DNA from: an uncultured Acidobacteriota bacterium
Lineage (GTDB): Bacteria > Acidobacteriota > UBA6911
Reading direction: 5' to 3'
DNA length: 64,000 nt
Assembly: GCA_963843575.1 (NCBI GenBank)
Contig: CAWJKZ010000021.1
Span: forward strand, 1-64,000
Positions 16,354 through 24,004 of this stretch are shown here, piece after piece (within the stretch, counting starts at the first letter, position 1; every line of letters begins with the position of its first letter). A program made the position numbers and the translations under genes. Below the pieces are notes generated by a model. That model did no database searches. It saw only the letters and a program-made list of their open reading frames with translations, and was not told the origin of the DNA.

Positions 16354-18673
16354 CTACTCCTTTTTCTCCAGACACCGCTCGTCGGCGGCGCAGTTTTCCT
16401 GCGCAACCCCTGCCGCGGCGGCGAACACCTGCCCGAGGGCGATGCCGCCGTCGTTGGGGGGGACACGCTGGTGCCAGTAGGGACGGAAACCCTCCTGGCG
16501 AAGACGCACGAGGGCGCGCTCGGTGAGCACCTTGTTCTGAAAACAGCCGCCGCTCAACACGACACGCTCCTCCCCTATCTCCGTGGCCACCTCCACGATC
16601 GTCTCCGCCATGGCCGCGTGGAATCGTGCCGCGACGTGTCCCGGGCGGGCGCCGCTCCCGACATCGGCGACGACGGCGAGCACCAGGGGTGCCCAGTCGA
16701 CCTCGAAACGCCTGCCGTCGCCACCCGGGCGTAGCCGGAACGGGTAGGGTTCGCGCGGCCCGGCGTCGTCCGCGGCGAACTCGAGCTCCATGGCGGCCTG
16801 GCCCTCGAAGGCGGCCACCTGCCGGATGCCGCTCAGGGAGGCGACGGCGTCGAAGAGACGTCCGGCGCTGGTAGTCGCCGGCGAGTTGAGGCCCTTCGCC
16901 ATCATGTCGGTCAGCAGCCGGCGCTCGGCCGGCGTGAATGCGGCGACGGAGGGGAGCGCGCCATGCTGCTGCAGGTCTGCGAACAGTTCGTGCAGGAGCC
17001 CAAGCGCTGCCCGTCGCGGTTCCCTCACCGCGCGGCTCGCCCCGGGAAGCCGGAATTCCCGAAGGGAGGCGACACGCTCGAAGCCGTGCTCGTCCGCCAA
17101 CAGGAACTCCCCGCCCCAGACCTTGCCGTCGAGCCCGTAGCCGGTGCCGTCCCAGGAGATCCCGAGGACGCGCCCAGTGAGGCTGTTGTCCGCCATGCAG
17201 GACAACACATGGGCGAAATGGTGCTGCACAGGGAATACGCGGATTCCGGAACCGAGTGCGAACTGCGTGGAGAGGTAGTCGGGATGCAGGTCGGTCGCCA
17301 TCAATTCGGGCGTGGCCCGGTACAGCGCGGTAAGGCTCAGGACGACCTCGCGAAACGCCCGCAGGGCCTGGTCGTTCTCCAGGTCCCCGATGTGCTGGCT
17401 GACGAAGGCGTTTCCCCCGGACGCCAGGGCGACGCTGTTCTTGAGGTGCCCGCCCACCCCAAGGATGGGGGGTGCGGCGGGGCCGAGGGGCAGCGGGAGT
17501 GGGGCATACCCGCGGGCGCGCCGCAGCACGAGTTCACGCCCGGCCAGGACGCGCGTCACCGAGTCGTCCACGTGCCGGACGATCGGGCGGTTGTGGACCA
17601 AGAAAACATCTGCGATACCGCGCAGGCGCGACAGCGCCTCGTGCTCATCGGTGCAGATCGGCTCGTCCGAAATGTTGCCGCTCGTCGCGACCACGGGGGC
17701 GTCCGAGTTCACGCATCAGCAGGTGGTGCAGCGGGGTGTAGGGGAGCATCACGCCAAGGTAGGGATTTCGTGGCGCCACTGCCGGGGCGATCTCCGAGTC
17801 GATGTCCGGAGCACGACGCAGCAGCACGATCGGGCACTCGGGCGAACGCAGCAGCCTCTCCTCGAGCGCGGAGACGCGGCACCAGCGGCGCAGCGCATGC
17901 ACCGACGGCGCCATCAGCGCGAGCGGCTTTTCGTCGCGGTGTTTGCGCGCGCGCAGGCGCAGGACGGCGGAATCGCTGCGGGCGTCGACCATGAGATGAA
18001 AGCCGCCCAGCCCCTTGACCGCCACGACGTCCCCGGCGGCGACCCGGCGGGCCGCTGCCGTCAGAGCCTCGTCCCCTTGCGCCTCCGCGCGGCCGTCCGC
18101 ATCCCACAGCTCGAACCGCGGGCCGCACTCCGGGCAGGCGTTCGGTTGAGCGTGGAACCGCCGGTCTTCCGGGTTTTCGTACTCGTCGCGGCACGCCGCA
18201 CACATGCGGAAGAGCTTCATCGAGGTGTTGGCGCGGTCATACGGGAGCGCCTCGATGATGCTGAAGCGCGGCCCGCAGTGGGTGCAGTTCGTGAAGGGGT
18301 AGCGGTGGCGACGGTTCCGCGGGTCGAACACCTCCGCGAGGCAGGCGGGGCACGTGGCGATATCGGGGAGCACGAGGGCCGTGGGGCTGCCGAGGCTCTC
18401 GCTCCGCCGTATCGCGAACTCGGCGAAACCCGCCGGATCGAGGAAAGAGCACTCGACGCTCTGGATGGACGAGCGGTCCGGTTTCTCCCGCTCGAGTCGC
18501 AGACGAAACTCGTCCAGCACGCCGGTTTCTCCCTCGGCTTCGATGAAGACGCCCTGGGGGGAATTGACAACCCAACCGCCGAGCCGCAGTTCGCGCGCGA
18601 GCCGGTAGACGAAAGGTCGAAAACCGACGCCCTGGACAGCCCCGCGAATGGTGATGCGTGCACGCTGGATCAC
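16354..18673 (-). CDS. hypF: Carbamoyltransferase HypF (frameshift near 17700)
   Basis: Acylphosphatase [11 protein letters not shown], two zinc fingers, [36 protein letters not shown]. Confidence 0.93.
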
Positions 18674-19326
18674 GGTGCCGGCGAAACCTTTCCCCGGAGC
18701 CAGTCGCACCACCGGGCTATGCCCGCGCCCGACGTGCAGGAAGTTTCGAACACCGTAAGCCCCGGGTTGATCTGCATGGCGTTGCGCCGCAGCGCGGAGA
18801 CGTCGCAGTTTACGTACGGCAGGAGGTCCGTCTTGTTGATGATCAGGACCGAGGCGTTGCGGAACATTGCCGGGTATTTCAGCGGCTTGTCGTCCCCCTC
18901 GGTCGTGCTCAGAACCACGACCTTGAGTGCTTCGCCCAGGTCGTAGTTGGCCGGGCAGACGAGGTTCCCGACATTCTCGATGATCAGGATGTCGAACTGT
19001 GAGAGGTCCATCCGCTGCAACGCTTCGTGCACGAGGCGCGCTTCGAGGTGGCAGGCGCCGTTGGTGACGATCTGGACGACCGGGACGCGATAGCGCGCCA
19101 CCCTCTGTGCGTCGAAATCGGTCTGCACGTCCCCTTCGATGACGGCGACGCGGGGAGTGCCGTTCAACTCCTCGAGGGTACGTTCCAGGATGCTTGTCTT
19201 GCCGGCCCCGGGGGAGCTGACGATGTTGAAGACGAACAGGCCGGCGCGCTCGAAAAGGGCACGGTTCTGCCCGGCGATTTCGTCGTTTTTCTCCAACACC
19301 TTGCGTTCGATCGTGATTACGCTCAT
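18670..19326 (-). CDS. hypB: Hydrogenase nickel-insertion GTPase
   Basis: SSPGAGKT, GACHL, ENVGNLVCPA, NKTD. Confidence 0.95.
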   Translation of the reverse strand: MSVITIERKVLEKNDEIAGQNRALFERAGLFVFNIVSSPGAGKTSILERTLEELNGTPRVAVIEGDVQTDFDAQRVARYRVPVVQIVTNGACHLEARLVHEALQRMDLSQFDILIIENVGNLVCPANYDLGEALKVVVLSTTEGDDKPLKYPAMFRNASVLIINKTDLLPYVNCDVSALRRNAMQINPGLTVFETSCTSGAGIARWCDWLRGKVSPAP

Positions 19327-19694
19327 GGCACCTCGGCGGGTTCGTCGGTCATCTCCACCTCCAGCACCTGGAGCTCCATTCCCGACGCCAGATTCACGTC
19401 GGCACTCCCGCAGGAAGGGCAGGCGAACGCCATGTCCTCGATCGGAAAGGAGGTCGAACAGGCCCGGCAAGCCGCCGTCGCCGCCACCTTCTCGATTTCG
19501 AGCCTCGTGGACTGCCACGGCGTGCCGCCGACGATCGCGGTGAAACAGAAGTCGAGCGAGTCCGGCACAACCCCGGAGAGGCTGCCGACCCGCACCCGGA
19601 CACTTCTCACGTCCGGCACACTGGCCGACGGGACGTGCTGCTCGACGATGTTCAGGATCTCCTGGGCTAGTGCCAGCTCGTGCATATCGGTCAT
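19323..19694 (-). CDS. hypA: Hydrogenase nickel metallochaperone
   Basis: MHELALA, CRAC...CPSC, GMEL. Confidence 0.94.
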   Translation of the reverse strand: MTDMHELALAQEILNIVEQHVPSASVPDVRSVRVRVGSLSGVVPDSLDFCFTAIVGGTPWQSTRLEIEKVAATAACRACSTSFPIEDMAFACPSCGSADVNLASGMELQVLEVEMTDEPAEVP

Positions 19695-21171: not shown

Positions 21172-21675
21172 ATGATCGAAACGACCGTGACATACCTGGA
21201 AATGCTGGAGAGACCCGAGGCTGCCGCACTGGCGCCGCCGTCGGACGGGATCTCGATCACGCGCGCCGTTTGCCCGACCGTTTCATTCTATCGCTACCTG
21301 TACGGCACCGTGGGGGCACCGTGGCACTGGGTCGATCGCTGCAGGCTCGGCGACGACCAGCTCGCGGCGATCATCCAGGACCCCCGCGTCGAGACTTTCG
21401 TGCTCTATGTGCGCGGCGTTCCGGCGGGTTACATCGAGCTTGACTTCCGGCGGATGCCGGACGCGGAGATCGCGTATTTCGGGATCATGCCTGAGTTCAT
21501 CGGACGCGGCCTGGGGCCCTACCTTTTGCGTTTCGGGACCGATACGGCTTGGGATCGAGGCGCTCGCAGGATCTGGCTCCACACGTGCACGCTGGACCAC
21601 CCCCGGGCCGTGGACACCTACGTGCGCGCAGGATTCAAGATCTACGACAGGCGCAGCGAGAGCTCCGAAGGCTGA
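21172..21675 (+). CDS. GNAT family N-acetyltransferase
   Basis: YFGIMPEFIGRGLG acetyl-CoA motif, WLHTCTLDHPRA. Confidence 0.88.
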   Translation: MIETTVTYLEMLERPEAAALAPPSDGISITRAVCPTVSFYRYLYGTVGAPWHWVDRCRLGDDQLAAIIQDPRVETFVLYVRGVPAGYIELDFRRMPDAEIAYFGIMPEFIGRGLGPYLLRFGTDTAWDRGARRIWLHTCTLDHPRAVDTYVRAGFKIYDRRSESSEG

Positions 21676-21936
21676 GCCCTTCCGGCGCCGGCTCGCGGGA
21701 ACCATACCTCGCCCGCTCTCCGCTGAGATTCCACTTCCAGCCGTATCGCGCCGCCTCGTTCGGGTGGCAGGGCGCCCCATCGGCTGCCCCGCCTCCGGCG
21801 ACCCTCCCGGTCGAACGATTATCTGAAAAAAAAAGGTTCGGATCGAAACATTAGGGGCAGCCCGGCATTGCCCAGTCGGCTGGATCGGTTTGCCGCCGGT
21901 TCTTCCAGGCGATGCCGAACAAGGAGGAGGTAGGCG

Positions 21937-22107
21937 ATGTCGAAGCTCAACCTGATCGAGTTGACCGAAGGCGAGGCGACCGCGATCGCCGGAGGCAGCA
22001 ACAATTTCTACTGCTGGGGGGGCGGGGTGATGACGGTCTTGGGGATTGCCTCCATGAACGCCATGGCTGCCACCGCCGGAGTCTGGTTCATTTACACCTA
22101 CTGCTGA
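21937..22107 (+). CDS. Double-glycine-leader bacteriocin/RiPP precursor A (56 aa)
   Basis: AAGGAGGAGG RBS; MSKLNLIELTEGEATAIAGG|SNNFYCWGGGVMTVLGIASMNAMAATAGVWFIYTYC* (translated by hand). Confidence 0.85.
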   Translation: MSKLNLIELTEGEATAIAGGSNNFYCWGGGVMTVLGIASMNAMAATAGVWFIYTYC

Positions 22108-22155
22108 CGTTCGAGCCCGACGGGCGAATGGAGTCAGCGGGAGGGGAGGAAGACC

Positions 22156-22329
22156 ATGGAGTTCCGAGAACTCGCATACGACGAAATGCTGGGTATTTGC
22201 GGAGGCGCCATGCCTTACAGTTGCGCGCTTCTGGGCGGTTTCACCGCCGTCGCGTTTCTGGCTGGCCAGTGGTGGGCGGTCGCCGGAGGGCTGTTGGCGG
22301 CCTACAACACCGGCTGTTTCTCGGCCTAG
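22156..22329 (+). CDS. Double-glycine-leader bacteriocin/RiPP precursor B (57 aa)
   Basis: GGGGAGGAAG RBS; MEFRELAYDEMLGICGG|AMPYSCALLGGFTAVAFLAGQWWAVAGGLLAAYNTGCFSA* (translated by hand). Confidence 0.85.
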   Translation: MEFRELAYDEMLGICGGAMPYSCALLGGFTAVAFLAGQWWAVAGGLLAAYNTGCFSA

Positions 22330-22341
22330 CAACCGGGGACA

Positions 22342-22400
22342 GCGGATTCGGCGGGGTCGGCGCCATGCGGACCGCCGGGGCCCCGGTCCCGCCGAACCGC
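22342..22400 (+). promoter_or_regulatory. GC-rich stem-loop between precursor genes and transporter genes
   Basis: GCGGATTCGGCGGG pairs with CCCGCCGAACCGC; no U-tract. Confidence 0.4.
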
Positions 22401-22444
22401 GGGCCGCGCCACGTGCTGCCTCCCGCGGCGATGGAGTTGCACCT

Positions 22445-24004
22445 ATGCTCTGGCTGCTGATCGTCATGCGGTATCGCTTGATCTGGGCGGACGCCCGCGC
22501 GCGCTCACGCGCGGGTCTCTGGGCACTGTATGTGGCCGGCGTTTTATTCTCAATGCTCTGCCTGCTGGCGGGATTTGCCGCCGCCTTCGCGGGAGTGCAT
22601 GCGGGTTTGGGCGCAGCGGTTGCGCGCCGGATCCTGGCTGCCATCCTGGCGAACTCGCTGGTCCTCGGCCTGGCCATGGGACGGGGTGTACACGCCGCCT
22701 TTTCCGATGCCGCGCTCCGGCGGTTCCCGTTCAGCCGCATCCGGCGCATGGCCATCCAGCTGGTGGCAGGACTGCTCGACCCGGTGTCGGTGTTCTCTGC
22801 CGCCGCACTCCTGGGGGTGGTGGCCGGTTTCCATGCGGGGCCTGCGACAACGGCTCTCGGGCTGGGCGCCGCGGCGCTGTTCCTGGTTTTCTGCCGGCTG
22901 GCCACGTCTCTGGCCCTGTCCGTCGTCGAAACGGTGCTGCGCTGCGGCGCCCGGGCGACGGCGCTTTACGGGGCGGTGCTGGCGCTGTTTGTCGGGACAG
23001 CCTTTCTGCTTCCGGTCGCGACGCGCGGGGGCGCCGGGTTACTGCGCGGCCTGGACGCGGTCCTGGAGGCCACCCCTGCCGGCATCGCGGGATCGGTCAT
23101 CTCGGCCCACGCCGACACCGCAGGCGCCGGGGGATGTGCCGCCTTGCTGGGCTGGTGCGCGGCTGCAGGCGCGTTGCTGTTCGCCGTCGAGCGTCGCCGG
23201 GACCGGAGGCCCGCAGCAAGGGCGCGGCGGTCCCGGCTTGGACCGTGGTGCGAGGGGCTGTCGGCCGCCTTCGGGTCCAGGCTCGCCCCGCTCGTGTCGA
23301 AGGCTCTTCTTTACCACCTGCGCTGCGACCGCGTCCGTTTCAACACGGCTGTTGCCGCACCGCTCATGGTCTTTCTGCCCGTGTGGATGGGGAGAAGCGG
23401 CAGTTCCGAGACGGTCTTCCTGATCCAGCTCGCGCTGTTTTTCGTCGCCCCGGCCCTGGCAACCAACGTGCTCATGATGAACCAGTTCGGCTGCGACGGC
23501 GCAGGCATCGAGCGATACCGCCTGCTGCCGGGGACACTGGGAGGGGCGCTGCGCGCCGGCAGCATCGCCTCGCTGCTCGTGGGCGGAGCCGTGCTGCCGC
23601 CGGGCATGCTGCTCTGGTCGCTGTTCCCGGGTCCCCAGGCGCATGCCGTCCACGCGCTCATGCTGGCGTTCAGCTTCCTCGCCGGCGCCTGTCTGTTCAA
23701 TGCGCTCGGCCTTTGGACGACACTGCTGGCGCCACGGCCGGTTCCATTTCAGGGAATCGCGGGGACGCAACTCTCGTGGCAGGCCAATGTCGCCCTGGCC
23801 GGCGGACTGATGACGGCTCTCGGAGCCGCCTTCGTCGCGGCGGAGCGCCCCGCGCGCACGCCGGGCTTTGCGCACGGTTGGTGTATCCCGGCGGCTGCGG
23901 CGATGTCCGGACTGACTTACCTGGTGTCCCTGTACTGGAGTTGCCGGCGGGCCGAGGGCCGCAGACAGGAGGTCACGTGTCGTATAAGAATGCAGGATCC
24001 GTAA
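22445..24004 (+). CDS. Multi-pass membrane protein, probable ABC-2-type permease (candidate immunity/export)
   Basis: About 12 hydrophobic segments; LRRFPF and NQFGCDGAG...LLP motifs typical of duplicated ABC exporter permeases; directly upstream of an ABC ATPase. Confidence 0.65.
   Translation: MLWLLIVMRYRLIWADARARSRAGLWALYVAGVLFSMLCLLAGFAAAFAGVHAGLGAAVARRILAAILANSLVLGLAMGRGVHAAFSDAALRRFPFSRIRRMAIQLVAGLLDPVSVFSAAALLGVVAGFHAGPATTALGLGAAALFLVFCRLATSLALSVVETVLRCGARATALYGAVLALFVGTAFLLPVATRGGAGLLRGLDAVLEATPAGIAGSVISAHADTAGAGGCAALLGWCAAAGALLFAVERRRDRRPAARARRSRLGPWCEGLSAAFGSRLAPLVSKALLYHLRCDRVRFNTAVAAPLMVFLPVWMGRSGSSETVFLIQLALFFVAPALATNVLMMNQFGCDGAGIERYRLLPGTLGGALRAGSIASLLVGGAVLPPGMLLWSLFPGPQAHAVHALMLAFSFLAGACLFNALGLWTTLLAPRPVPFQGIAGTQLSWQANVALAGGLMTALGAAFVAAERPARTPGFAHGWCIPAAAAMSGLTYLVSLYWSCRRAEGRRQEVTCRIRMQDP

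Follow-up and report, generated by a model that had tools for sequence, protein, structure and literature searches.

A five-gene cassette in Acidobacteriota encoding a credible, previously unnamed family of two-peptide disulfide-hairpin bacteriocin candidates

Results

A five-gene cassette with two double-glycine leader peptides

The window, by which we mean the whole 64,000-nucleotide stretch of Acidobacteriota DNA that was analysed, contains five genes on one strand: pepA, pepB, a gene for a membrane protein with about 11 hydrophobic segments, an ABC ATPase gene, and a gene for an ABC exporter with a C39 peptidase domain (PCAT; Table 1). The two small genes are 48 nt apart, and each is preceded by a purine-rich, Shine-Dalgarno-like run. 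Both precursors feature a leader with a double-glycine ending (...ELTEGEATAIAGG in PepA, ...ELAYDEMLGICGG in PepB), and with 20 and 17 residues both leaders lie inside the 15-30 residue range of the class IIb criterion. Relatives keep L(-12), E(-8) and the GG, and in the PepA leader L(-12), E(-8) and I(-4) fit the double-glycine consensus. Cutting after the GG gives exactly the cores of 36 and 40 residues that an earlier, sequence-only reading of this DNA had quoted.

Table 1. Features of the cassette, with positions in the window
Feature	Position	Strand	Details
Shine-Dalgarno-like run AAGGAGGAGG	21921..21930	+	ends 6 nt before the pepA ATG; read from the sequence
pepA ORF	21937-22107	+	56 aa
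pepA leader	21937..21996	+	20 aa, ends in GG; pN/pS 0.63
pepA core	21997..22107	+	36 aa + stop; Cys6 and C-terminal Cys36; pN/pS 0.23
Shine-Dalgarno-like run GGAGGGGAGG before pepB	22140..22149	+	read from the sequence
pepB ORF	22156-22329	+	57 aa
pepB leader	22156..22206	+	17 aa, ends in GG; pN/pS 0.55
pepB core	22207..22329	+	40 aa + stop; Cys6 and Cys37; pN/pS 0.22
Polytopic membrane protein	22445..24004	+	519 aa; 11 hydrophobic segments (crude scan)
ABC ATPase	24037..24795	+	252 aa; PF00005, E 1e-28
C39-peptidase ABC exporter (PCAT)	24809..26986	+	725 aa; PF03412 (E 9.6e-36), PF00664, PF00005

The exporter has the domain content of a PCAT, with an N-terminal C39 domain, ABC_membrane and ABC_tran. 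Against TIGR01193 it scores 406.6 bits, below the cut-off of 523.85, and the motifs Q..DCGAACL, H[FY]V and ADP are intact in all five PCATs found in cassettes of this kind. The 519-aa membrane protein matches no Pfam or NCBIfam model. Its ESM-Atlas neighbours, which score 0.97, are unnamed Acidobacteriota clusters; a minority of the members of these clusters carry 12TM_1, ABC_tran_2 or ABC_export, which we treat as a lead only. From its position, the protein would be the permease of a self-protection ABC transporter, with the 252-aa ATPase as its partner. The 115-nt gap after pepB has no room for a separate reading frame of at least 30 aa, and a third gene like that of the gallocin A immunity peptide (GIP) is absent.

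Within this gap, positions 22342-22400 of the window hold a GC-rich stem-loop whose stem is about 14 bp long. The element could govern the balance between structural and downstream transcripts, although its energy is no better than that of shuffles in this GC-rich DNA (z -0.54). Upstream of pepA, the 260-nt intergenic region contains nine consecutive A at 21826-21834, an unusual feature at about 65% GC. Promoter and terminator scans of 21600-22500 returned 0 sites, and a simple scan found no sigma-70-like promoter. The GC content of the cassette itself was discarded as an indicator: with 0.68-0.70 against 0.62-0.66 in the flanks, it is uninformative.

The cassette is flanked upstream by genes for a GNAT acetyltransferase, a thioesterase and hypA/hypB, and downstream of the PCAT gene by one for an enolase-superfamily enzyme; these neighbours look unrelated to peptide production. 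The hypB-like gene (CobW/HypB/UreG domain) and hypA, which belong to hydrogenase nickel insertion, occupy 18670-19694 of the minus strand, and an esterase, the thioesterase and the GNAT gene stand between them and the cassette.

Gene order is constant and the distribution patchy

Pattern-based scans of genome and metagenome collections and a phylum-wide genome search yielded 15 loci (L008-L022). Two of them were rejected as relatives and left out of the family counts. In L014, from a MAG of the PVC group, the pattern CWGGGVMT matches inside an enzyme-sized ORF of 417 aa (L014:6426-7679 (+)), and in L009 a weak profile match in an Acidobacteriota genome runs antisense to a pilin-like gene (L009:1357-1683 (+)). 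The 13 loci that remain correspond to about eight distinct sequences.

In all 13, pepB lies directly 3' of pepA. The proposal that the two peptides act as a pair finds its support here, and this support is genetic. The membrane protein is present in 11 of the 13 loci, the ATPase in five (L010, L012, L013, L015 and L018, where it is syntenic) and the PCAT in four; wherever a downstream gene is missing, the contig ends first, and wherever the contig continues, the gene order is constant. The surroundings differ, with GNAT and enolase genes in the window and in L010 versus DeoC and histidine kinase genes in L013, and the five genes therefore travel as a unit.

Several cassettes conserve an additional short ORF, hydrophilic and about 25-50 aa long, in the space that separates pepB from the gene for the membrane protein; it ends in ...IDRE and is not hairpin-like (L019:1538-1633, L020:5014-5109, L012:683-835, L015:1488-1640, L013:8736-8813, L008:856-963 (-) and L016:8741-8791). 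By tblastn, it has no match in the window, L010, L011, L021 or L022.

Within the order, which here amounts to one family, the cassette occurs in four of 50 other genomes and in three of 11 genera, the window's own included. A sample of 400 other genomes from across the phylum contained one true match. Such a patchy distribution is as expected of an accessory weapon.

Relatives conserve a hydrophobic, cysteine-bracketed core

Word-based searches gave 17 relatives of pepA and 6 of pepB, and an exhaustive profile search combined with a superfamily profile extended the set to 29 A-type and 32 B-type cluster representatives (61 in total). No functional name is attached to any of them: the few with a name at all read 'hypothetical protein' and come from Acidobacteriota MAGs or metagenomes. 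The cysteine bracket that the sequence-only reading had pointed out, at core positions 6 and 36 in A and 6 and 37 in B, is a property of the family: both cysteines are found in 27 of 29 A-types, with a spacing of 30, and in 32 of 32 B-types, with a spacing of 31. The two A-types that depart from this are P0016, with F as its last residue, and P0036, a fragment of 31 aa. Three divergent A-types from metagenomes (P0032, P0035 and P0041) possess one or two extra cysteines, at positions 18 and 28 or 30. These could form intermolecular bridges or be free thiols; we discarded a nested second disulfide for P0032 and P0041, because a hairpin with its centre at 20-21 does not bring the extra cysteines (18/30 and 18/28) face to face in any obvious way.

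Between the two cysteines, none of the 61 representatives contains a lysine or arginine. Aspartate and glutamate are confined to positions 20, 21 and 23 (12 cases) or 34 and 36 (6 cases), and proline to position 22 (8 A, 1 B) or 23 (1 A). At the level of sequence, such a pattern marks a pair of hydrophobic helices with a polar, exposed turn between them. The cores had also been described as completely uncharged. For the window pair, which lacks any K, R, D, E or H, this is correct, but it does not extend to the family: 15 of 29 A-type and 6 of 32 B-type representatives are wholly uncharged, many B-types have E-R before the first cysteine and E after the last, and a pair in which both cores are uncharged is limited to the window and its nearest relative.

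Nine A and eight B genes from the loci allowed us to look at selection. Synonymous differences are near saturation (pS 0.53-0.59), and pN/pS drops from 0.63 (A) and 0.55 (B) in the leaders to 0.23 and 0.22 in the cores. By this comparative measure, the pepA and pepB reading frames are real genes under selection.

The kinship of the two peptides lies in leaders and architecture

Are A and B ungapped paralogues, as had been claimed? In ungapped register, C6, G10, T13, A24, G28 and Y33 are indeed identical (6 of 36 positions) and N21/Q21 similar, as described. The similarity of the cores is, however, no better than chance. When B is shuffled 20,000 times between its fixed cysteines, 20% of the shuffles reach at least as many identities; a core-only hhalign of A against B scores 12.9 with a probability of 2.8%, and 48 of 200 column shuffles reach this score. 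The full-length profiles match at 96.3% (E 1.9e-9) over 54 ungapped columns, and since the cores alone match at chance level, this match must come mainly from the leaders. The architecture, on the other hand, is shared: in both peptides, the first cysteine is equidistant from the cleavage site, the cysteine spans are 30 and 31, and the predicted helix boundaries and the turn position coincide. The divergent relatives P0039 and P0045 have an intermediate look between A and B types. Kinship between A and B therefore appears to rest on leaders and architecture; common descent is plausible, even if the core residues do not show it.

The AxxxG/GxxxA helix-packing motifs (small-xxx-small) that had been noticed in the cores are present, but they are not enriched: core A has 2 where shuffled sequences average 3.4, and core B has 10 against an average of 7.05 (P 0.064).

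The family sits at the edge of named class IIb models

Neither peptide of the window reaches any Pfam (E<=0.1) or NCBIfam model. Against TIGR03949, the model for class IIb peptides of the lactobin A/cerein 7B kind (cut-off 21.5 bits), PepA has no match at E<=10 and PepB none at E<=1. When 22 relatives were scanned, 10 matched TIGR03949 weakly, all below 21.5 bits except P0043 with 26 bits, and 9 matched PF10439 (Bacteriocin_IIc), the best with E 2.5e-4. What they have in common with these models is a GG leader and, after it, a core that opens with a hydrophobic stretch rich in Gly and Ala. Two Enterococcus proteins named as TIGR03949 members, P0072 and P0073, also came up with the superfamily profile, but only because the near-identical P0043 was already in the query profile; they have a single cysteine and one helix. 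Judged by these matches, the family thus stands at the edge of the named class IIb models, not inside them.

Predicted helical hairpins with a closing disulfide

AlphaFold2, run on shallow core-only alignments of 9 rows each, predicts the same fold for both cores: a helix from 3 to 19, a turn at 20-21 and a second helix from 22 to 35. Core B is predicted with a mean pLDDT of 89.0 (83.6-89.0 over five models), and the prediction for core A is unstable, with 88.2 for the best model and 88, 75, 69, 62 and 51 over the five. The best structural matches found with VIA-align are generic antiparallel two-helix hairpins (37 residues, rmsd 1.6 A, Z 6.3, with all Z<=6.3). Foldseek returned no match in the PDB at E<=0.001, and no bacteriocin structure was prominent in the structure searches. 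When the superfamily profile was run against PDB sequences, no match came in at E<0.35, and the CtA leader peptide in a PCAT1 entry was touched without significance (E 1), over leader positions 7-23 only.

A turn near 20.5 places residue 6 opposite residue 36/37 at the open end of the hairpin, which makes a closing disulfide geometrically natural. We suggest such a Cys6-Cys36/37 bond from the invariant cysteine spacing and the helix register of the models. The disulfide-closed helical hairpins that the sequence-only reading had envisaged thus receive in silico support from the predicted fold, the hairpin-like structural matches, the cysteine spacing and the placement of Pro, Asp and Glu. Prediction of an A+B complex gave scores of 0.02 and 0.07 against a mark of 0.32, which speaks neither for nor against pairing. 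As for oxidation in the producer, this MAG (88% complete) has three DsbA-like genes of the thioredoxin fold; DsbB and VKOR were not found in it.

No membrane-fusion gene on the contig of the cassette

No HlyD-type membrane-fusion gene belongs to the cassette, and none is found elsewhere on its contig; the genome has 28 HlyD-like (TIGR01843-like) places, every one of them on a different contig. The genome has a second C39-peptidase ABC exporter (G000 contig C15:231390-233116 (-)), which, unlike the PCAT of the cassette, has HlyD-like matches directly beside it.

Discussion

The two small genes most likely encode a pair of hydrophobic, disulfide-stapled hairpins which, after cleavage and export, work together as an antibacterial toxin in two parts, in analogy to gallocin A. 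In our view, the locus is probably a five-gene cassette for an unmodified two-peptide (class IIb-type) bacteriocin of the gallocin A kind, with a patchy distribution in one family of Acidobacteriota. Starting from the anatomy of the locus, its conservation and the predicted fold, we infer the following course of events. PepA and PepB would be made as precursors with their double-glycine leaders of 20 and 17 residues. The C39 domain would cut after the GG, and the exporter would pump the cores of 36 and 40 residues across the inner membrane; we base this step on the domains of the exporter, on its intact catalytic motif and on the leader cleavage and peptide export for which PCATs are established. 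Outside the cytoplasm, each core is predicted to fold as an antiparallel alpha-helical hairpin, and a Cys6-Cys36/37 disulfide, oxidised there, would staple its open end. Together, the two hairpins may then insert into the cytoplasmic membrane of a competitor and permeabilise it, as the analogy to gallocin A and the strict co-inheritance of the two genes suggest. The 519-aa protein and the ATPase, finally, would protect the producer by expelling peptide from its own membrane; we propose this because of the position of the genes and because ABC-type bacteriocin immunity has a precedent.

Gallocin A is the closest characterised analogue that we can point to. As outlined in PMC10100652, it consists of two GG-leader peptides with few charges, each inactive alone; each peptide has one intramolecular disulfide, which was shown by mass spectrometry and is needed for activity, and ColabFold predicts alpha-hairpins. 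The cassette resembles it, feature by described feature, in its adjacent GG-leader genes, its long, low-charge peptides and its PCAT exporter, and further in the two cysteines near the N and C termini and the predicted antiparallel alpha-hairpins with an intramolecular disulfide. There are differences as well. Gallocin A belongs to Gram-positive hosts (streptococci), whereas the cassette is found in diderm Acidobacteriota; its peptides of 42 and 60 aa have 1-2 cationic residues, whereas the cores of 36 and 40 aa here have none; and its small hairpin-like immunity peptide GIP has as its putative counterpart here an ABC permease-like protein and an ATPase. The thioredoxin-like helper (BlpT) of the gallocin A locus is another point of difference from the cassette.

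This comparison also bears on two further ideas of the sequence-only reading. The first was that the hairpins would enter membranes through a receptor rather than by charge. The analogue, as far as its published description goes, does not support this: gallocin A permeabilises protein-free liposomes, and no receptor emerged among 12 resistant mutants (PMC10100652). The second was that the peptides might be a new family. Their sequence family is unnamed, and the peptides of the window reach no Pfam or NCBIfam model, but the kind is not new: class IIb bacteriocins consisting of two low-charge alpha-hairpin peptides, each with an intramolecular disulfide, were described in 2023, with gallocin A (PMC10100652). 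Since the gallocin A hairpins are published, the structural idea matches a kind already in print. Overall, the observations in that reading were partly confirmed and their interpretation is partly supported. New here are the unnamed sequence family, its occurrence in a diderm phylum, a putative ABC transporter in place of the usual small immunity peptide, and a cassette without a membrane-fusion protein in cis.

How does the cassette relate to class IIb bacteriocins in general? These are defined, in the terms of PMC2850506, by two different peptides that are encoded next to each other in one operon. Optimal activity in this class takes both peptides, in roughly equal amounts. Adjacent peptide genes in 13 of 13 related loci, GG leaders and a dedicated C39 ABC exporter all agree with this class; where an immunity gene would be expected, the genes beside the structural pair are those for the 519-aa membrane protein, which belongs to no curated family, and the ABC ATPase.

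Class II microcins and bacteroidetocins provide the comparison with other diderm producers. In PMC12219008 they are described as single peptides, and the term 'two-peptide' occurs 0 times in its main text. The cassette shares with them a diderm producer, a small GG-leader peptide that is cut and exported by a PCAT, and unmodified cores that bear a disulfide, with processing and disulfide both predicted in our case; according to the same source, MccV and EN43 contain one disulfide each, as judged by mass. Class IIa microcins are described there as relying on a cis-encoded membrane-fusion protein and TolC for export and on a small membrane protein for immunity, whereas the cassette has two peptides, no membrane-fusion protein on its contig, and an ABC pair. 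The literature we searched contained no mention of a two-peptide or two-component microcin and nothing specific on bacteriocins of Acidobacteriota.

The missing export partner raises the question of how wholly uncharged, hydrophobic hairpins get out through one outer membrane and in through the next when no type I secretion partner is encoded in cis. A more radical reading of the locus would make this its defining feature: the cassette would represent the first native two-peptide GG-leader bacteriocin family of a diderm phylum, with no cationic residue and no membrane-fusion protein, in which the PCAT delivers the peptides to the periplasmic leaflet only and the ABC pair serves as a second release stage. 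If this were true, the 12-TM-like ABC pair would extract the peptides towards the outer membrane or vesicles, and diderm targets would be entered by a route not seen for microcins. We regard this version as rather unlikely.

The probable reading of a gallocin A-like pair has to be weighed against explanations that depart from it further. It is unlikely that A and B are two independent one-peptide bacteriocins, each active alone, that share one exporter and one protection system. Class II loci often contain several bacteriocin genes, and the A and B cores resemble each other in sequence no more than chance would allow; both points would fit independence. Against it, one A and one B occur in the same order in every one of the 13 loci, including divergent A-types on contigs equal in length to those of B-types, the protection system is single, and the two peptides share their architecture and their predicted helix boundaries.

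Could the peptides be no weapon at all? The hairpins might stay on the periplasmic face of the producer's inner membrane, as envelope or membrane components or as a signal, with the ABC pair handling or sensing them. The lack of a membrane-fusion protein in cis or on the contig, whereas the PCAT on contig C15 has adjoining HlyD-like matches, is in line with this, and so is the inclusion of signalling peptides among the PCAT cargo named in PMC7018657. Yet the cassette has no conserved sensor kinase or regulator, with a histidine kinase gene downstream in L013 only, and a patchy, accessory distribution together with extreme hydrophobicity fits toxins better than housekeeping parts. Bacteroidetocins, moreover, are likewise described as encoded near a PCAT (PMC12219008). 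Taken together, we consider a role other than that of a weapon quite improbable.

A different arrangement of the disulfides, in which two bonds between A and B would join them covalently as two long helices, is conceivable from the geometry, as both peptides have their first cysteine at core position 6 and their spans hardly differ (30 and 31), which would allow two A-B bridges. We nevertheless think it very improbable: Pro22 and the Asp/Glu at 20-23 would interrupt the middle of a continuous membrane helix, AlphaFold2 places a turn at 20-21 in both peptides, and the bridges of gallocin A, the characterised analogue, are described as intramolecular. That the peptides are precursors of a further-modified RiPP (a lanthipeptide, sactipeptide, glycocin or similar) is hardly credible. 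In its favour are weak matches of some relatives to the lantibiotic and rSAM-RiPP leader models TIGR03893, TIGR04149 and PF16934, and a GNAT gene upstream in the window and in L010. Against it, no modifying enzyme is conserved in the cassette, the flanks vary by locus, and the weak matches span leader-like regions and all remain below the cut-offs. Hydrophobic, low-charge helical hairpins with covalently cross-braced arms are known from thuricin CD, a two-peptide sactibiotic, and from glycocins such as sublancin. Their braces are enzyme-made thioether bridges, or nested disulfides combined with glycosylation, and the enzymes that make such bridges or glycans are not conserved in this cassette.

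Finally, we would like to return to the gallocin A-like pair and to what it would mean for its hosts. In soil, Acidobacteriota are abundant and difficult to culture, and their ways of competing are little known. If our reading is true, the recently proposed disulfide-hairpin subclass of two-peptide bacteriocins extends from Firmicutes to a diderm phylum. In our judgement, this locus belongs to a sequence family without a name so far, whose members in Acidobacteriota are credible candidates for two-peptide disulfide-hairpin bacteriocins, and its compact, five-gene, enzyme-free cassette, with two peptides that are short enough for synthesis and need no modifying enzymes, makes it a directly and readily testable candidate weapon of these bacteria.
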